From IMG/VR virus record IMGVR_UViG_2630968533_000009: a stretch of 16,383 bases of DNA. One strand, 5' to 3'. The notes under the pieces were generated by a model that was not told the DNA's origin, ran no database searches, and saw nothing but the letters and a program-made list of their open reading frames with translations. This document shows, piece by piece, positions 2,253 through 16,383 of the stretch. Each line of letters starts with the position of its first letter. Positions within the stretch are counted from its first letter, which is position 1. Both the position numbers and the translations under genes were made by a program. The DNA comes from a virus (Duplodnaviria; Heunggongvirae; Uroviricota; Caudoviricetes).

Positions 2253-2708
2253 ATGGAAATTTTATCTGTAATGAATTCTGTTGTGACCAGATTACGTGAA
2301 CACAACTCCGAAATGGATATATTTATTTCATCTAAGGATGCCCAGAAATATATTCCACAGACACAACGAGTTGCAGTGATTATTAATTATAGCGGTTCTG
2401 TCTTTGCTACGCCCGAAAGCAGTAATGCCATCGTGCAACAGCAAATACTCCGCTTAACCGCCACCGTTATTGTTGGCAAAAATTGTGATGCATTAAACGC
2501 ACTTGATCACATACGCAGCGCATTGGGTGGCCTTCCGCTTCCTGATTGTGATCGTCTGCTTTGGCTTGAAAAAGAAATTAATACGGGTGAGAGCGGCGGT
2601 TTCTGCCGCTACATCCTGGAAATGGCGACCAGCTCGCTGTTTATCGCTGAACAGGAAAGCACGGATCTTCCCCTGCTTACGGAAGTTAACTACGAGGAAA
2701 CTGAATGA
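2253..2708 (+). CDS. Phage tail protein, Mu gp37-like (tail completion/terminator candidate)
   Basis: 151-aa ORF, first gene of the tail operon, stop overlaps the next start (ATGA). Assignment rests mainly on position two genes upstream of the sheath, as in Mu-like tails. Confidence 0.4.
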   Translation: MEILSVMNSVVTRLREHNSEMDIFISSKDAQKYIPQTQRVAVIINYSGSVFATPESSNAIVQQQILRLTATVIVGKNCDALNALDHIRSALGGLPLPDCDRLLWLEKEINTGESGGFCRYILEMATSSLFIAEQESTDLPLLTEVNYEETE

Positions 2709-2902
2709 AATACATCTACAACGGCCCAGCAAGCGGCGTCACCCTTGCCGATGGACAAGAAATCTTATTGTGGCCGAACAGTGAAATTGATCTGCCAGAA
2801 GACAACGAGTGGGTCATGACCATGATTGCCCGCAATCATCTGACTCCTGTCATCACTCAGGAAGAACAAAATAACGTAGAGGAAATTGTACATGGCAGCT
2901 AA
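2705..2902 (+). CDS. Small tail-associated protein preceding the sheath (DUF2635-like)
   Basis: 65-aa ORF translationally coupled on both sides. A small conserved gene in this position is typical of Mu-like tail clusters. Confidence 0.4.
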   Translation: MKYIYNGPASGVTLADGQEILLWPNSEIDLPEDNEWVMTMIARNHLTPVITQEEQNNVEEIVHGS

Positions 2903-4316
2903 TTATCTGCACGGTGTAGAAACTATTGAAATTGAAACCGGCCCGCGTCCGGTTAAAGCGGTAAAATCCGCCGTCATCGCTTTAATCGGTACATCCCCCT
3001 GCGGTCCGGTAAATAAACCAACATTATGCCTTTCTGAAAGCGATGCTGCGCAGTTTGGCTCGACTCAGGCTAACTTTACGATCCCACAGGCACTGAAGGC
3101 AATTTATGACCACGGTGCCGGTACGGTGGTGGTGATTAACGTGCTGGATCCGGCAAAACATGGCTCCAACATCAGCAATGAGAGTATCACTTTTGATGCT
3201 AACAACCAGGCGAAGCTCGCTCACCGCAATGTGCGTAACGTGGTACTAAAGCCCTCTTCATCAAATTCATCAACCTTTAACACCGCAGCATTTAGCGTAG
3301 ATGAACAAACAGGCATAATTACCCGTAAAGGAGCCGACATTCCTCCTGGTGCGAAAGTTTGTGCCTATTATTCCTGGTGCGACCCTACAAAGGTCACCGC
3401 AGCCGATATTATCGGTACCGTAAATACCGCAGGCGACCGCACGGGGATGAAACTCCTTCAGGACACCTATAACCTGTACGGTTTCTACGCCAAAATCCTG
3501 CTTGCTCCTGTGTTTTGTACGCAAAAATCGGTGACTACTGAGCTGATTGCACAAGCGGAAAAACTCGGTGCGATTACCTACATTGATGCCCCGATTGGGA
3601 CAACATTCCAGCAGGTATTGGCTGGACGCGGTTCGCAAGGGGCTATCAACTTCAATACCAGCTCTGATCGTGCGCGTTTATGTTACCCACATGTCAAAGT
3701 TTACGATGGCATCACTAACCAGGAAATTCTTGAGCCTCTCTCTTCGCGTGCTGCCGGGCTGCGTGCCAAAGTAGACCTCGAAAAAGGTTTCTGGTGGAGC
3801 AACTCAAACCAGGAAATTCAGGGTATTACCGGTATTGAACGTTCGCTTTCCGCAATGATTGATGATCCACAAAGCGAAGTGAATCAGCTCAACGAAAACG
3901 GCATTACCACTATTTTCAATAGTTACGGCTCTGGTCTGCGCTTGTGGGGTAACCGCACAGCGGCATGGCCTACCGTGACCCATATGCGTAACTTTGAAAA
4001 CGTCCGCCGGACAGGCGATGTAATCAATGAGTCAATCCGTTATTTCAGTCAGCAGTATATTGATATGCCGATTAATCAGGCACTTATTGACGCGCTGACC
4101 GAATCGGTAAATACCTGGGGCCGAAAACTGATTGCCGACGGCGCACTGCTTGGCTTTGAGTGCTGGTACGATCCGGCACGAAATTCACCGGCTGAACTCA
4201 GCGCCGGGCATTTATTGCTGAGCTATAAATTCACCCCGCCACCGCCGCTGGAACGTCTGACGTTTGAAACTGAAATTACTTCTGAATATTTAGTCTCTCT
4301 GGAGAGCAATAGCTAA
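2892..4316 (+). CDS. Contractile tail sheath protein
   Basis: About 474 aa. N-terminus MAANYLHGVETIEIETGPRP resembles the P2 FI / Mu L sheath N-terminus. ATG 2892 with GAGGAA RBS preferred over the track's TTG at 2886. Confidence 0.9.
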   Translation: MAANYLHGVETIEIETGPRPVKAVKSAVIALIGTSPCGPVNKPTLCLSESDAAQFGSTQANFTIPQALKAIYDHGAGTVVVINVLDPAKHGSNISNESITFDANNQAKLAHRNVRNVVLKPSSSNSSTFNTAAFSVDEQTGIITRKGADIPPGAKVCAYYSWCDPTKVTAADIIGTVNTAGDRTGMKLLQDTYNLYGFYAKILLAPVFCTQKSVTTELIAQAEKLGAITYIDAPIGTTFQQVLAGRGSQGAINFNTSSDRARLCYPHVKVYDGITNQEILEPLSSRAAGLRAKVDLEKGFWWSNSNQEIQGITGIERSLSAMIDDPQSEVNQLNENGITTIFNSYGSGLRLWGNRTAAWPTVTHMRNFENVRRTGDVINESIRYFSQQYIDMPINQALIDALTESVNTWGRKLIADGALLGFECWYDPARNSPAELSAGHLLLSYKFTPPPPLERLTFETEITSEYLVSLESNS

Positions 4317-4840
4317 TGGCTGGAAAAATTCAAATTAACCGTATTACCAACGCCAATATTTATCTCGATGGTAATAACCTTTTAGGTCGTGCAACAGAAA
4401 TTAAATTGCCGGATGTAAGTTTAATTATGCAGGAGCATAAAGCACTGGGCATGGTGGGTAAAATCGAACTCCCGGCAGGTTTCGATAAACTGGAGGGCGA
4501 AATTAAATGGAACTCCTTCTATCAGGACGTAATGCGTAAAACGGCAAACCCGTGGCAGGCGGTTGCATTACAGTGCCGCTCCAGTATTGATTGCTATAAC
4601 TCCCAGGGGAAAGCGAATCAATTAGCGCTAGTGACACATTTAACCGTGATGTTTAAAAAGAATCCACTGGGCACATTTAAACAGAATGAAAACCCGGAAT
4701 TCAGCAGCGCCTTTGGTTGCACTTATATTAAACAAGTAGTTGATGGTGAAACGCTGCTTGAACTTGATTATATGGCCAATATTTTCCGGGTTAATGGTGT
4801 GGATCAATTAAGTACCTATCGCAATAACATCGGTGGCTAA
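4316..4840 (+). CDS. Tail tube protein
   Basis: 174-aa ORF immediately after the sheath, start overlapping the sheath stop (TAATG). Size and position match P2 FII / Mu M-type tube proteins. Confidence 0.8.
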   Translation: MAGKIQINRITNANIYLDGNNLLGRATEIKLPDVSLIMQEHKALGMVGKIELPAGFDKLEGEIKWNSFYQDVMRKTANPWQAVALQCRSSIDCYNSQGKANQLALVTHLTVMFKKNPLGTFKQNENPEFSSAFGCTYIKQVVDGETLLELDYMANIFRVNGVDQLSTYRNNIGG

Positions 4841-4844
4841 GTTA

Positions 4845-4864
4845 TTCGGGGCTACGGCCCCGAA
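4845..4864 (+). other. RNA hairpin after the tube gene (8-bp GC-rich stem, 4-nt loop)
   Basis: TTCGGGGC-tacg-GCCCCGAA is a perfect inverted repeat 5 nt after the tube stop, with no long T tract. Likely an mRNA-stabilising or partial-termination element. Confidence 0.5.
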
Positions 4865-4890
4865 CTTTGCAAAATAAATAAGGACACAAA

Positions 4891-10772: not shown

Positions 10773-11132
10773 ATGAACACAAAAACACGCCCCTCAACGC
10801 TGCACTGGCAACCGGCCTTGCTGCGGCCTGAAGAATACGTCTGCGGACTGGATGATATTCACCAGGCAATACACATCATTCTGCGTACACCGCGCGGCAG
10901 TGATCCCCACAGACCGCTGTTTGGCAGCAACTTGTGGCACTACATCGATTACCCCATCGAGCGGGCTATCCCGCATGTGGTACGGGAGTCGGTGGAAGCC
11001 ATCCGCCAGTGGGAACCGCGCTGTCGGTTGCTGAAGGTGACACCAGTAATCGACGGCGAACATCTGACGTTACGTGTGCAATGGCGCGCCGCTGACGGCG
11101 TTATCAACTCAACGGAGGTGTTATGGCGATAG
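10773..11132 (+). CDS. Baseplate wedge protein (gpW/gp25-like)
   Basis: 119 aa with IHIILRTPRGS ... FGSNL ... WEPR pattern matching the gpW/gp25 family. Confidence 0.8.
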   Translation: MNTKTRPSTLHWQPALLRPEEYVCGLDDIHQAIHIILRTPRGSDPHRPLFGSNLWHYIDYPIERAIPHVVRESVEAIRQWEPRCRLLKVTPVIDGEHLTLRVQWRAADGVINSTEVLWR

Positions 11133-12100
11133 CCGAACCCAATTTTATTGACCGCGATCCTGCGCAAATTACCAGTGAGATGATTGCGCAATACGAAGAT
11201 GCCAGTGGTAAAAAACTCTATCCGGCACAGGCTGAGCGGTTGCTCATCGACCTGTTTGCCTATCGTGAAAACCTTGTACGCATCGCCATTCAGGAAGCGG
11301 CGAAACAAAACCTGGTCGCGTATTCCCGCGCGCCAATGCTGGATTATTTAGGAGAGCTGGTGGGCGTTCACCGTTTGCCTGCGCAGCCAGCAAAAACGAC
11401 GTTGCAGTTTTCGGTCGTCAGTGCGTATACCAGCAATATCCTGATTCCCCAGGGGACGCGGGCCAGTGCCTCTGATAGCGTGATGTTCGCCACCGATGAA
11501 GATGTTCTGCTTCCGGCCTGGAGTTTGCATATCGCCGTTCCTGCCACCAGCCTCGCAGCAGGTGAACAGGGTAACGGCTGGCAGCCTGCACAAATTAGCG
11601 CTCTGGTCGACAGGATTGGTCATTATGACATCAACGTAACCAACCTGACTGCGTCAACGGGCGGCTGCGGTGAAGAGAGCGATGACGCATTGCGCCAGCG
11701 TATCCAACTGGCACCAGAAAGCTTTAGTAATGCGGGCAGCTATGGCGCATACCGCTTTCATACGCTTTCTGTTAGCCAGTCGATTATTGACGTTGCAGTA
11801 CTGGGGCCGGACGAGGGATTGCCAGAAGGCTGCGTGGAGATCTACCCGCTAACGCTGTTTACCACCGCCGATCAGGAGACAACGCTGGCTGCGGCGCGTA
11901 AAGCGATTAGCCTCTGGACGCAACAGCGGCAGAAACATCTGGGGCAAGACATTGTGCCAAACCAGATAATCAAAGTGTTACAGGTCGATGGCGTCTATGA
12001 CGTTGCGCTGAACTTGCCTACAAAACGTATTTTGCAGGCGCATGAATGGGCGGAATGCACTGCAATAGACGTCACGATCGCCGGAGTTAGCGATGGATAA
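11123..12100 (+). CDS. Baseplate J-like protein
   Basis: 325 aa immediately after the gpW-like gene with overlapping start. Size and order match P2 gpJ / Mu baseplate J. Confidence 0.85.
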   Translation: MAIAEPNFIDRDPAQITSEMIAQYEDASGKKLYPAQAERLLIDLFAYRENLVRIAIQEAAKQNLVAYSRAPMLDYLGELVGVHRLPAQPAKTTLQFSVVSAYTSNILIPQGTRASASDSVMFATDEDVLLPAWSLHIAVPATSLAAGEQGNGWQPAQISALVDRIGHYDINVTNLTASTGGCGEESDDALRQRIQLAPESFSNAGSYGAYRFHTLSVSQSIIDVAVLGPDEGLPEGCVEIYPLTLFTTADQETTLAAARKAISLWTQQRQKHLGQDIVPNQIIKVLQVDGVYDVALNLPTKRILQAHEWAECTAIDVTIAGVSDG

Positions 12101-12809
12101 ATTGCTACCACCGCCGCCGCTTGCCAGCGATGAGCGTTTTTCGATTCTGGCAAATATCGCCGCCGAGCGTTTTGCCCAACTCGATCTGACGGCGTTGATG
12201 GTTTATCTGGTCGACCTGGTTGATGCTTCGGCATTACCAGCCCTTGCAGAACAATTTCACGTTCAGGGGTTGGAAGGTTGGTTATTTACCACCGATGAGC
12301 GGGAGAAACGCGAGTTAATTAAACAAGCCATTGAACTGCATAAATATAAAGGAACAATTTGGGCGGTGCGGCGGGTGCTGGAAATACTCTCCTTACCCGG
12401 AACTATTTCAGAATGGTTTGAATATGGGGGAAGGGCTTACTTTTTTAAGGTTGATATTACACTAGAGGAAAAAGGATTAAATGAAGATGAATTCAATGCA
12501 CTTATCACATTAATTCATGAATATAAAAATGTCCGTTCAAAGCTGGAAAGCATTGTTATTTGGCTTATTAATCGAAGCCCAATACCAGTTATTGGCAGTG
12601 CCATGCAAGGAGGGGAAGTCATTACAGTATTGCCTCCTGTTGCAGAAAGCCTCAGCCAGTCATCTGGAATATTTTTAGCGACAGGTTATTGTGTGGAGGA
12701 ATATATTCAACTACTACCTTATCAACCCGATCGACTAACACAATCCCAACCGATGAAGGTCGGCACAGGATACTGGAGCACCGAAATTATGTCTGTATAT
12801 CCGGAGTAA
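12093..12809 (+). CDS. gpI-like baseplate protein with extended low-GC C-terminal region
   Basis: N-terminus [16 protein letters not shown] is typical of the P2 gpI family. At 238 aa it is longer than P2 gpI, and the C-terminal part (about 12420..12720) is visibly AT-rich. Confidence 0.7.
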
Positions 12810-12812
12810 TAA

Positions 12813-14422
12813 TGGCAAGTGAATTTTTTACAATATTAACTGCTGCAGGCAAAGCCAAAATTGCCTCAGCACTGGCCGAGCAAAAACAGATCCGTCTGCA
12901 AACTATGGTAGTTGGCGACGGTAATGGTAAATATATCGAACCGACAGAAAGTCAGACCAAAGTAGTCCATGAGGTCTGGCGTGGTCAGCTCAATACATTA
13001 AAAATTGCGCCAGATAATCCGGCCTGGGTTATCGCAGAAGCGATTATTCCCGAACAAGTCGGAGGCTGGTATGTACGCGAAGTTGGGTTACTGGATACCG
13101 ACGGCACGATGGTCGCTATTGGTAAATTCCCGGAAACCTATAAGCCACGATTACCTGCGGGGGCCAGTAAGCAAATCGTTATACGCGCGGTCATGGAAGT
13201 CACCAATGCAGATGCGGTGACGCTTTTGATCGACCCTTCAGTCGTTGTGGCAACCAGGGAATATGTCGATGACGCGTTGAAAACACATCAGCAATCACGA
13301 AATCATCCTGATGCGACGCTGACACAAAAAGGTTTTACGCAGCTGAGTAATGCGACTAATAGCGATGATGAAACCAAAGCGGCCACGCCAAAAGCGGTAA
13401 AAACGGCATATGACCTGGCAAATAGCAAAGCTGCCACCAGTCATAATCATGCCTGGAATCAGATTACTGGTATCCCTGATGGTACACTGACGCAGAAAGG
13501 AGTCGTTAAGCTTAACAATACAACAAATAGCACCAGTACGACGGAAGCTGCAACACCAAGTGCGGTTAAGGCAGCGATGGATAAGGCTATTGCTGCGGCA
13601 CCGTCCAGCCATACCCATGCCTGGGGGCAAATAACAGGTATCCCCGACGGTACGCTGACGCAAAAAGGGGTCGTGAAACTTAATAATGCGACCAACAGCA
13701 CCAGTACGACGGAAGCTGCAACGCCGAACGCTGTTAAGGCAGCGATGGATAAGGCTATTGCTGCGGAAAGCTGTCCTGTTGGGATGCCTATTCCCTGGCC
13801 ATCTGATTCTGTACCTTCAGGCTACGCTCTGATGACAGGTCAGACATTTAATAAAACCTCCTATCCCAAACTGGCAATTGCATATCCATCTGGTGTTATT
13901 CCTGATATGCGCGGATGGATAATTAAAGGAAAACCATCCAGTGGGCGCGCTATATTATCTACTGAACTGGATGGAGTTAAATCACATAACCATACGGGCA
14001 GTATTTCGAGTACGGACTTAGGGACGAAATCTGTATCATCAATAGATCTAGGAACAAAGAACACTCAGTCATTTAATCATGGGATAAAAACAACAAATAC
14101 AGCAGGCGCGCATAGCCATGATAGTGGTTCTGGCGAAAGTAGTGAGGGGGGAAAACCTCGGTATGGTACTCGTGATAACACAACAAATAATTTTGGTTCT
14201 GGTGAATCAGATCATGACAATTACAAATTTAACACATCCACGGATGGAGAGCATGCACATTCAGTTAATGTTGGCTCACACTCTCACTCTGTTATTTTAG
14301 GGTCACATAATCATTCAATTGCCCTTGGTTCCCATAATCACTCCCTAACCATTAATAATACCGGCAACACCGAAAACACCGTCAAAAATATCGCATTCAA
14401 CTATATTGTGAGGCTAGCATGA
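12813..14422 (+). CDS. Tail fiber protein
   Basis: Conserved Mu S / P2 H-type N-terminal domain, three internal fiber repeats, collar-like segment ([11 protein letters not shown] ... [12 protein letters not shown]) and HxH-rich tip. Start set at ATG 12813 after the gpI stop; the track's 12689 start is an upstream in-frame extension. Confidence 0.85.
13306..13766 (+). repeat. Tandem tail-fiber repeats (about 56 aa / 168 nt period, three copies)
   Basis: Copies 2 and 3 (13469..13598 and 13637..13766) are near-identical in nucleotide sequence, differing mostly at synonymous positions. Copy 1 (from about 13306) is more diverged. Protein motif TLTQKG-x-LNNxTNS ... EAATP-x-AVK-x-A-x-D. Confidence 0.7.
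14264..14344 (+). repeat. Three tandem 27-nt repeats encoding x-x-x-G-S-H-x-H-S
   Basis: GTTAATGTTGGCTCACACTCTCACTCT / GTTATTTTAGGGTCACATAATCATTCA / ATTGCCCTTGGTTCCCATAATCACTCC, in frame within the fiber C-terminus. Confidence 0.7.
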
Positions 14423-15126
14423 ATACTTTTACCTTTTCCGATGAAGCTCAAATACTAACTGTATATAATTTTTCACAAGACTCCCAAGAATATATCGGTG
14501 AGTCTGATGCATACATTGCACCTAATACAGGCTTGCCAAATTATTGCACATTAATTTCACCTCCCGAAAAGGTTCCTGGTTTTACTCCAGTGTGGGAGAA
14601 TGAAACATGGAGACTTATTGAAGATCATCGAGGCCAAACTGTTTATAACAAAGTTGATGGTAGCCAGCTTATTATTCAAGAATTGGGCCAATTACCTGAA
14701 AATGTAACAGTCATTTCCCCGACAGGTTCTTTTGAACGTTGGGATGGTGAAAAATGGCAACCATCTATAACCGATGCTAAAGAGGCGAAATACTCTGCAA
14801 TCAAAAATCAACGCGATGCCATCACAACCGATTACATCATCATCAACAACCATCACTTCCACAGTGATACAAATAGCCGTATCCAACAGCTTTCACTCAC
14901 AAAAATGGGAGCGGAGAAAAAAATTCCGCCAGGTTTAATGTGGAAAACTAAAAATAATGGTCTGATTGAGTTAACCAACGAAATCGCTGCCCAGTTTGAA
15001 TCGGTCACCATGGATCACGATATGCGCTTGTTCGCAAACGCCCAGCGTCATATCGCGGCGGTGGAAGCACTGGACGATATTCAGGCGGTGCTCGACTACG
15101 ATTATTCAACAGGCTGGCAACCATGA
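14419..15126 (+). CDS. Tail fiber assembly chaperone (Tfa-like)
   Basis: 235-aa ORF directly after the fiber with ATGA start/stop overlap. AT-rich N-terminal two-thirds and a normal-GC C-terminal about 45 aa ending [10 protein letters not shown]. Confidence 0.6.
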
Positions 15127-15578
15127 GTAAAACCACTGTCTGGCTCGCTTGTTATAAGGGCCGAACAGAGCACCGTGGTATTGCCCGACTGGCTGACTGG
15201 CTTACCCGTAAAATCACACGCGGTCATTATTCCCACTGTGAATTAGCCGTTAAGCATGGTGAAAAGAGATACCTTTGTTACTCTGCATCACTGCGCGATC
15301 GCGGTGTACGCGGAAAGATAATGCCATTGCCAGCGGATAAGTGGGATATGCTGCCGCTCCAGGCTAGCCTTCAGGATGTGGAAACTTTTTTCCGTAAACA
15401 TGATGGCAAAAAATATGACTGGCGCGGAGCATTAGGAATTATTACCGGTAATAAAGAACAGCGCGATCGCCTGTTTTGCAGTGAATTTTGTGCTGAATTT
15501 CTGCAACTGAAGGAAAGCTGGCGCTATTCTCCAAACCACTTGTACGCTTTAGTCAGCAGCTGGCAATACCAGCAATAA
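15123..15578 (+). CDS. Hypothetical protein, possible LRAT / permuted NlpC-P60-like thiol hydrolase (accessory gene)
   Basis: 151-aa ORF translationally coupled to the fiber assembly gene (ATGA). Motifs YSHCELAV ... KHG and LFCSEFCAEF resemble the His ... His ... Cys order of that fold, from memory only. No signal peptide. Confidence 0.3.
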   Translation: MSKTTVWLACYKGRTEHRGIARLADWLTRKITRGHYSHCELAVKHGEKRYLCYSASLRDRGVRGKIMPLPADKWDMLPLQASLQDVETFFRKHDGKKYDWRGALGIITGNKEQRDRLFCSEFCAEFLQLKESWRYSPNHLYALVSSWQYQQ

Positions 15579-15583
15579 ATCAC

Positions 15584-15602
15584 GCCGGGCTTTATGCCCG
15601 GC
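15584..15602. terminator. GC-rich hairpin between convergent genes (possible bidirectional terminator)
   Basis: GCCGGGC-tttat-GCCCGGC, 7-bp all-GC stem, 6 nt after the 15578 stop and overlapping the stop of the minus-strand gene. Confidence 0.5.
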
Positions 15603-16383
15603 ACATTACCGTTTGATACAGCAAATTATCTAGCTCCCGAACATCTCCATCTCGACTGTCCGGTAAAATCGGTGGAATTTCCCCGCGCGCCAGTTCCGCG
15701 CGAATAAACGCATGCAATAAAGGACGGCGCAGTCCATATTCCGCTTCACTCGCACGCTGTTTACGCTCCAGCAATTCATCTATTTCTGCGCGTAAGGCCG
15801 CATCCAACTCACTTCCCGCCAGTAACTCGGCAAAGCGCATTGGCGGCACGCCTTTTCCCGCTTCAACCCAGCGTACGGCCAGCAGCGGGCGCAGCACGTA
15901 AAAGTATTTTTTCAGTCGAACTTCGTCGCCCTGTAAATAACCGCGAAAGTTTTTCTGCGCCATCGAATAGTAATGCCAACGCGCGCGCAACGAAGAAAAC
16001 CACATTGGGACCATTGCCTTAAGCGCCGTTATCGTTTCTTCATCTTGTTGATAGACCACCGGAGAATCCAGCCATTCTATCAGCGTCGGATTCGCGCCTT
16101 TCAATAATCCCAGCGCCTTACGCCACTCCCAACCGGAAACATCTAACTCGTCGTCGATAGGCAGTTCGATAACATCGCGCGGTGACTCTACACGCAGATA
16201 CCATTCTAGCGGATGGACATACAAAAACCGTACATCGTAGTCGCTATCGGGCGAGGCAAATCCCCAGCCGCGGCTGCCTGATTCACAGGCGTACAGCACT
16301 TTCACGCCATAGCGACGTTCTATTTCTTTTAACTGCTGCGATACCCGTTCGCGCATCGCAGCACTGACTCCATTTAATGGCAT
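15592..16383 (-). CDS. Nucleotidyltransferase (Pol-beta superfamily), probably outside the tail locus
   Basis: N-terminal ESGSRGWGFASPDSDYDVRF matches the GS-x(n)-D-x-D nucleotidyltransferase signature. ATG lies exactly at the window end (16381..16383), so the true start may be upstream. Convergent with the tail operon. Confidence 0.6.
   Translation of the reverse strand: MPLNGVSAAMRERVSQQLKEIERRYGVKVLYACESGSRGWGFASPDSDYDVRFLYVHPLEWYLRVESPRDVIELPIDDELDVSGWEWRKALGLLKGANPTLIEWLDSPVVYQQDEETITALKAMVPMWFSSLRARWHYYSMAQKNFRGYLQGDEVRLKKYFYVLRPLLAVRWVEAGKGVPPMRFAELLAGSELDAALRAEIDELLERKQRASEAEYGLRRPLLHAFIRAELARGEIPPILPDSRDGDVRELDNLLYQTVMCRA

Follow-up and report, generated by a model that had tools for sequence, protein, structure and literature searches.

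In the T4/lambda family of receptor-binding proteins, homology is confined to the last ~215 residues of the fibre, the gene for gp38 or for a tail-fibre assembly protein (Tfa) is adjacent, and a divergent segment of 30-70 residues corresponds to the specificity region of gp37 (PMC9659904, Magaziner & Salmond 2022). The members of the family use OmpC, OmpF, LamB or lipopolysaccharide as receptors (PMC9659904). Tfa proteins have a variable N-terminal domain that binds the fibre and a conserved C-terminal domain that trimerises (PMC9608196). Two older reports describe how P2, Mu, P1, lambda and T4 exchange the 3' ends of their tail-fibre genes horizontally (Haggard-Ljungquist et al. 1992, PMC206541) and how T-even gp37 recombines at His boxes or conserved motifs (Tetart et al. 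1998). Here, we analyse a stretch of 16,383 nucleotides (nt) from the IMG/VR record IMGVR_UViG_2630968533_000009 (hereafter the window, whose coordinates are used throughout), in which the end of a tail-fibre gene and the start of the tfa gene that follows it form an AT-rich block. We conclude, with a probability of roughly 85%, that this block forms the module that sets the specificity of a contractile phage-tail machine, i.e., a gp37-type tip and the matching N-terminal domain of its chaperone, exchangeable as a host-range unit. What we observe directly is the anomalous composition, the homologies, where the domains end, and the replacement of alleles, with sharp junctions, at a single locus. 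The features concerned are the following.

12438-12809, + strand: C-terminal half of gpI (Tail_P2_I), the left part of the allelic block, presumed to dock the fibre.
12812-14422, + strand: fibre of 536 residues, with a Phage_tail_fib N-domain, three Phage_fiber_2 repeats and a Collar domain.
12812-13768, + strand: N-terminal baseplate-attachment domain of the fibre (Pfam PF12571, residues 1-149) and its repeats (three matches to PF03406).
13769-14422, + strand: T4 gp37-type receptor-binding tip (residues 320-536), made of a collar, a needle with GxHxH His boxes and a distal head.
14014-14311, + strand: hypervariable head (residues ~402-500), the putative receptor contact, replaced between strains while its flanks stay 86-99% identical.
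14419-14766, + strand: N-terminal beta-rich domain of Tfa, of the Caudo_TAP / lambda Tfa / T4 gp38 type, which co-varies with the tip.
14767-15126, + strand: C-terminal DUF4376 domain of Tfa (Pfam PF14301, residues 119-227), conserved across all alleles and the putative right-hand anchor of recombination.
15123-15578, + strand: orf151 (151 residues), which accompanies the pair of tip and Tfa and matches PHROG 1128 (labelled 'enoyl-CoA hydratase-like' moron).

The closest described counterpart of the tip is T4 gp37, with its family (T4, TuIa/b, Ur-lambda Stf, PhiNP ORF6). An end-to-end alignment pairs the last ~217 fibre residues with gp37 residues 809-1026 at 55% identity. A phmmer search of the PDB matched fibre residues 317-536 to positions 25-242 of the T4 gp37 tip structure (2XGF_A, E=3.1e-66), and blastp gave 55% identity to gp37 residues 812-1026 (E=9e-66). 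Similar sequences were found by tblastn in 404 phage records, including gp37 of T4 and other T-even phages, side tail fibres of lambdoid phages, gpH of P2-like phages and the Citrobacter phage PhiNP, and all these matches (55-62% amino acid identity) fall at the C-termini of the matched fibres. When seven tips are aligned, residues 320-416 (the collar side) and 497-536 are conserved, with the collar and the final ~40 residues almost unchanged, the centre cannot be aligned, and five HxH pairs are invariant (H392/H394, H481/H483, H490/H492, H499/H501 and H508/H510). The head aligns with the segment of gp37 named as its specificity region, residues 932-965 (PMC9659904). The tip is, by homology, a member of the T4 gp37-type receptor-binding family, with which it shares the conserved collar and C-terminal HxH boxes, the divergent 30-90 residues in the centre and the gp38/Tfa-type gene directly downstream. 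In the trimeric needle, metal ions would be bound by the HxH boxes, and the distal head would contact the receptor. The locus differs from that of T4 in that the tip is carried by a short fibre (536 residues) of P2/Mu style, with a Phage_tail_fib N-domain, in a head-less tail island on the chromosome. The sequence of the head is unique, so that the receptor cannot be read from it, and the chaperone has an additional C-terminal domain, DUF4376.

The tfa open reading frame (ORF; 14419-15126, 233 residues) overlaps the stop codon of the fibre gene (ATGA at 14419-14422), as do the genes of lambda Tfa, P2 gpG, Mu U/TfaMu and T4 gp38, with which it also shares the match to Caudo_TAP. This match (Pfam PF02413) scores 30.9 bits for a cut-off of 22.1 (E=3e-7), and the precomputed annotation of the protein is PF28596 (Caudo_TAP_N). 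Over its first ~145 residues, it shares 44% identity with a lambdoid Tfa and 25% with T4 gp38 (E=2e-11). Its sequence therefore identifies it as a protein of the lambda Tfa/T4 gp38 type, and it is predicted to act as a chaperone that binds the tip through its N-domain and folds and trimerises it. An AlphaFold 2 model (mean predicted local distance difference test of 92) has a beta-rich domain at residues 1-115 and an alpha/beta domain whose helix starts at residue 117. The boundary between the two, at residues 116/117, corresponds to position ~14765, where the third codon positions recover their usual composition (see below). This arrangement in two domains, with a variable N-part that co-varies with the tip and a conserved C-part, is also that of TfaMu and Pam3 gp25. 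Unlike the lambda-type Tfa, which has a short helical C-terminus, the protein ends in DUF4376 (~119 residues, alpha/beta in the model), for which the structure comparison returned no matching solved structure. Across alleles, the N-domains of Tfa differ and DUF4376 is 88-96% conserved. A 213-residue E. coli protein (P0127), which matches the first 76% of Tfa at 100% identity but lacks a precomputed annotation of DUF4376, may be a truncated or re-fused variant.

The base composition delimits the same module. GC content in 300-nt windows is 0.38-0.42 at 13801-15000, against 0.48-0.53 at 12901-13950 and 0.47-0.52 after 14851, and a two-breakpoint maximum-likelihood fit on 12812-15578 puts the block at 13842-14985 (0.396 inside, 0.494 outside; difference in log-likelihood, lnL, of 12.9). 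The original prediction, made from the letters of the window, had placed this AT-rich stretch at 13900-14990. The discontinuity is indeed present on calculation, both in total GC and in GC at third codon positions (GC3), but the predicted right edge lies ~200 nt, and the left edge ~30-130 nt, too far to the right. To separate codon usage from protein composition, we computed for each segment the GC and GC3 expected from the encoded amino acids under the codon usage of the backbone genes, from the sheath to J. The fibre tip (13769-14419) has a GC3 of 0.313 for an expected 0.544 (z=-7.1), and codons 1-120 of Tfa (14419-14778) one of 0.242 for an expected 0.545 (z=-7.0); the GC3 of the cassette and that of the backbone differ with p=9e-21 (Fisher's test). 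The AT-rich block is thus real, highly non-random and, for the tip and the N-part of Tfa, beyond the effect of amino acid composition. The rest of Tfa (14779-15123) is normal given its amino acids (z=-0.3), and its last 45 codons had been rightly described as of normal composition (GC 0.54-0.55).

The edges depend on the measure. Dynamic-programming segmentation of the gene series from V to orf151 gives a trough of GC3 (0.27-0.28) from 13799 or 13874 to 14781, with a right edge at 14781-14811. On the left, domains and homology place the edge at 13769, GC3 places it at 13799-13874, and total GC at 13842. Plots of total GC misplace the edges of a module when the amino acid composition is skewed, and GC3 and the comparison of alleles agree with the domain boundaries. 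The surroundings of the cassette are not uniform. The N-part of the fibre, which had been expected to be of normal composition together with its repeats, is intermediate (GC3 0.445, z=-4.1). Upstream of it, the anomaly of the C-terminal half of gpI (12381-12806) equals that of the cassette (GC3 0.31 for an expected 0.54, z=-5.8), with a patch (12381-12809) where GC3 has a minimum of 0.20. The best-supported single break in GC3 of the V-to-orf151 series is at ~12219, where it falls from 0.61 to 0.39. A scan for promoters and terminators found nothing above the shuffled expectation inside the cassette.

The exchange of the module can be followed at a single chromosomal site. The window belongs to an island of the E. 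coli chromosome: the exact Tfa protein is present on E. coli chromosomes of ~5 Mb, and strain WP4-S18-ESBL-09, 100% identical to window positions 10773-13839, carries the island between lysC and yjbD, which is its site in all the loci examined. We found it in ~195 of 5,426 complete E. coli genomes (~3.6%), always on the chromosome, and orthologous clusters in E. albertii (at the same site) and in Salmonella (STM4198-4203). For the allele analysis, five E. coli loci were compared with the window. The alleles of KK19-02 (KK19) and D7 are 95-98% identical to it up to ~12440, inside gpI, where the identity drops sharply from ~97% to ~67%. The N-part of the fibre (residues 1-318) is uniformly diverged from those of KK19 and D7 (~71% nucleotide and 62% amino acid identity), and there is no similarity to either from fibre residue ~319 to Tfa residue ~117-128. 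Homology resumes at 14799-14804, the start of DUF4376, at 93-96% identity. The fibres of KK19 and D7 end in a Gly_rich_2 domain, not in a collar and gp37 tip, and their accessory proteins join a non-Caudo_TAP N-domain to the same DUF4376. Many database proteins of 187-217 residues likewise match only the DUF4376 half and have other N-domains. From these and from the KK19 and D7 alleles we conclude that the tip class and the N-domain of the chaperone co-vary while DUF4376 stays constant.

The block exchanged between allele families thus extends over 12440-14800 and comprises the C-half of gpI, the whole fibre and the N-domain of Tfa. In 52 of the ~195 genomes with the island, only the last ~190 nt of the cassette query are kept. 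The gpI protein has 238 residues in the window and 210 in the KK19, D7 and Salmonella alleles, and its C-half probably co-varies with the N-terminus of the fibre that it is presumed to dock. Within the family of the window allele (~143 genomes), only the head is replaced, at ~14014-14311. The core that cannot be aligned is at 14108-14270 in the comparison with MRY15-131, and the replaced segment at 14059-14311 in that with A37 and at 14091-14326 in that with E. albertii. Several of these junctions, among them the sharpest, are at or next to GxHxH boxes (residues 432-436, 488-492 and 497-501). The original prediction of a host-range cassette swapped within conserved flanks is therefore partly supported. 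It correctly recognised a classic host-range module, and its modularity stands, but the boundaries were imprecise: the unit of exchange and its flanks are those given above, between families and within the family, and the right-hand anchor is the whole DUF4376 domain, from ~14765-14800, rather than the last ~45 codons of tfa.

These junctions suggest how the module would work and move. It is made up of the 217 C-terminal residues of the fibre and the ~116 N-terminal residues of the assembly protein, which have to match and would therefore be inherited and exchanged as a pair. For recombination, homology on the right would be supplied by the conserved DUF4376, and the left-hand homology by the N-half of gpI when the whole block is exchanged, or by conserved motifs inside the tip, including the His boxes, when only the head is. 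As in the mosaic fibres of P2, Mu, P1, lambda and T4, there is a conserved N-part, an exchangeable C-part with its assembly gene, and head junctions at or next to GxHxH boxes. The locus departs from these classic cases in that the exchange is between alleles of one chromosomal locus across E. coli, and in that the larger unit includes the C-half of gpI.

Direct repeats at 13307-13766 correspond to the three tandem Phage_fiber_2 units, which have a period of 168 nt; the second and third share 84% identity. One unit less is present in the Salmonella ortholog, and the fibres of KK19 and D7 match the repeat four times; since the number of units differs among these fibres, we conclude that the length of the shaft varies by repeat number. 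Downstream of tfa, orf151 is conserved at 97-99% identity throughout the E. coli alleles, at 78% in Salmonella (STM4198) and at 58% in a P2-like prophage that also has a related tip and Tfa. It has no match in Pfam (E up to 10) or NCBIfam, and could be a third member of the fibre module.

The relatives and codon usage of the module indicate a history separate from that of the tail backbone, as had been proposed. Whereas the tip resembles the C-termini of T4 gp37, lambdoid side tail fibres and P2-like gpH, the fibre N-part and the baseplate have full-length matches only in the orthologous tail cluster of Salmonella, besides short matches to the repeat motif in P2-like and other phages. The relatives of the cassette thus differ from those of its flanks, and non-homologous tips stand on a backbone that is 95-98% identical. 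We then compared, by lnL, the codon usage of the backbone with a T4-like model made from T4 genes without homology to the cassette. The AT-rich T4-like model fits better for the tip (+23.7), the N-domain of Tfa (+26.3) and the C-half of gpI (+12.4), and the backbone model fits better for the fibre N-part (-52), the C-domain of Tfa (-25), the N-half of gpI (-20), orf151 (-8) and the RlaP gene further downstream (-60). In T4 itself, GC3 is 0.33 in the gp37 tip and 0.27 in gp38; in the lambdoid and P2-like homologs it is 0.38-0.41, below that of their own N-parts. The same trough, even sharper, is found in Salmonella SARB27, where GC3 falls from 0.61 in the fibre N-part to 0.28 in the tip and 0.31 in the N-part of Tfa, and is back at 0.58 in the C-part of Tfa. 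The P2-like prophage, which lies on an E. coli contig, encodes a tip, a full-length Tfa and an orf151 that are 64%, 63% and 58% identical to those of the window, all with a GC3 of ~0.61; AT-rich codons are therefore not required by the tip and Tfa proteins. The sheath of this prophage has only 33% identity to that of the window, and the module is thus found on backbones that are unrelated. Because its AT-rich, T-even-like codon usage is unlike that of the backbone, the module seems to come from a different gene pool, that of the gp37-type tips of T4, lambda and P2. The codon signature is most readily explained by history, as the trace of an AT-rich pool to which the T-even phages belong; a T-even step would be one way to obtain it, and any AT-rich donor fits.

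The carrier of the module has the gene content of a tail without a head. In the left part of the lysC-yjbD interval are a Mor-type activator, a holin, a lytic transglycosylase, a lipoprotein and a Gp37-family protein. They are followed by the sheath, tube, tail chaperone, tape-measure protein, gpU, X, D, V, W, J, I and fibre and, after the fibre, by the DUF4376 protein, the 151-residue ORF, an RlaP nucleotidyltransferase and a slipin. The annotated gene content of the interval includes no capsid, terminase, integrase or replication genes, for which reason we regard the island as a tail-only, tailocin-like cluster. In terms of genes, both the contractile-tail set and the lysis cassette that characterise R-type tailocins are complete. 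The sheath is only 33% identical to a P2-like sheath, which makes the backbone a distant relative of that of P2. R-type tailocins (the R-pyocin subtypes and the TF locus of kosakonicin, PMC6629978) resemble the island in having a cluster of sheath, tube and baseplate genes without head genes, and a fibre and chaperone locus that varies between close relatives. The island differs from them in being known from its genes alone, in having tips of gp37 or Gly-rich types and in including a Mor-type activator. It may produce particles that kill. Judging by the text of its description, the 'ST131 tailocin' (PMC9205054) seems to be another element, a P2-like prophage region. Our literature searches found no published description of the lysC-yjbD island, nor of STM4198-4203 as a tailocin, nor any account of particles made by the island or of killing by them.

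Several observations weigh against an exchangeable module acquired from elsewhere. The inner breaks in GC3 are only modestly supported (Bayesian information criterion of 2480.8 for two segments and 2482.9 for four). No listed complete E. coli genome combines the window-type fibre N-part with another type of tip, and none shows an exchange exactly at the junction of N-part and tip at 13.77 kb. This junction may be ancient, as the Salmonella ortholog shares the architecture throughout. A megablast of the cassette against 50,697 phage records gave no match, and a search of 5.8 billion proteins gave no close donor of the tip, the nearest tip outside the locus being 70% identical. The separate acquisition is thus deduced from mosaicism and not from an event caught in the act. 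As there is no close donor, we infer that the acquisition is old. Finally, the machine of the window strain may not assemble. Its gpJ (11123-12100) has 325 residues, for 371 in most copies, the difference being an in-frame deletion of 138 nt (46 residues) with 10 bp of microhomology at the junction (11848-11857). The deletion is common to only 6 of 194 island-bearing E. coli genomes, a lineage in which it may have disabled the assembly of the baseplate.

The main rival reading concerns the unit of exchange: the whole 12440-14800 segment would have arrived as one piece from a related tail element, with a tip and chaperone that were already AT-rich, and the 13.77-kb junction would be an old inherited domain fusion rather than the product of recombination within the island. 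We give this scenario even odds. The only sharp junctions with KK19 and D7 are those at ~12440 and ~14800, with an evenly diverged fibre N-part between them, and all of the ~143 genomes with a window-type N-part also have a tip of the window family. In Salmonella SARB27, the same N-part, a gp37-type tip and a Tfa of 233 residues are found together, with an even divergence (64-72%). However, the mosaic of codon usage inside the block (T4-like in the C-half of gpI, the tip and the Tfa N-domain, backbone-like in the fibre N-part) requires at least one earlier junction near 13.77 kb, and so does the presence of the tip on the unrelated fibres of lambdoid phages, P2-like phages and T4. The arrival of the whole segment is therefore compatible, at a deeper time scale, with the exchange of a specificity module and does not contradict it.

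It is improbable that the AT-richness arose in place, without transfer, by AT-biased mutation and relaxed or diversifying selection on a fast-evolving receptor-binding region. The head is hypervariable and the locus is decayed in some strains (by insertion sequences or frameshifts), as such a process would have it, but the collar, which is well conserved, is also AT-rich at third positions (GC3 of 0.22-0.30 at 13802-13981). Besides, the edges of the trough coincide with boundaries of domains and of homology, the Salmonella ortholog has the same trough, and the alternative alleles are non-homologous rather than diverged. Still less credit can be given to the low GC being a mere by-product of proteins rich in Asn, Ser, Thr, Lys, His and Ile, or of functional constraints, without historical signal. 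This does hold for 14779-14988, where GC is 0.395 for 0.418 expected from the amino acids (z=-1.2) and is low because the protein sequence is rich in Lys, Asn and Ile and not through codon usage; GC at second codon positions is also low in tfa (0.377). It is contradicted at 13769-14778 by a GC3 seven standard deviations below the backbone expectation given the amino acids, and by the tip and Tfa of the P2-like prophage, 63-64% identical at a GC3 of 0.61, and we reject it there and accept it for 14779-14988. A programmed switch of host range, by an invertible segment (of the Mu G or P1 C type) or as the target of a diversity-generating retroelement, has nothing in its favour beyond the hypervariable tip and can be dismissed, since neither inverted repeats of more than 19 nt nor another copy of the tip or tfa occur in 12000-15700, and neither the ORF list nor the RefSeq annotation has an invertase or reverse transcriptase between lysC and yjbD.

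Other observations concern the island as a whole. Some strains show decay of the locus: in TCM3e1 the fibre tip is split by an insertion of ISVsa5 (IS4-like), and in AR_0013 gpI is frameshifted and the fibre fragmented (the decayed regions are at 3668-4876 of locus L010 and 2255-4193 of locus L012). The lowest GC of the window (0.30-0.36) is at 301-900, between the divergent genes of the Mor-type activator (1-348, - strand) and the holin (886-1173). This region contains an ORF of 89 residues (388-657) without a PHROG match and is probably the regulatory region of the island. The right end of the island (15592-16383, - strand, and beyond) has the gene of the RlaP-family nucleotidyltransferase and, just outside the window and before yjbD, the slipin gene (Band_7). 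Both seem to be cargo that has nothing to do with the tail, and are separated from orf151 by a GC-rich hairpin (15581-15605). In Salmonella Infantis SARB27 (locus L014, equivalents of STM4198-4204), gtr-type genes of O-antigen glucosylation are directly upstream of gpW. In the literature, the fibre gene of the Salmonella cluster, STM4200, serves as a PCR marker specific for Typhimurium, which fits allelic variation of the fibre between serovars.

The biology of the module is textbook modularity of tail fibres, with mosaic fibres and a matched chaperone. The cassette defines what the tail machine would bind, and its exact junctions (13769, 14014, 14311 and ~14765-14800) can be used for engineering or typing. 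What is possibly new is the carrier, a tail-only island with several specificity alleles in a small fraction of E. coli genomes. A wider reading, which we put forward tentatively and regard as less probable than its negation, is that the lysC-yjbD island represents a functional family of R-type tailocins of E. coli, E. albertii and Salmonella, undescribed in the literature searched. Its range of targets would have been diversified at three nested levels (the block of gpI C-half, fibre and Tfa N-domain; the class of tip; and the head flanked by His boxes), and its gp37-type tips would keep a T-even-like codon usage. An active island would amount to a natural means of strain-specific killing in lineages of clinical relevance, and would also be a ready source of gp37-type tips with their cognate chaperones. 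If the wider reading is true, a tailocin family with T-even-like tips would point to a continuing flow of genes between virulent T-even phages and chromosomal bacteriocin loci.

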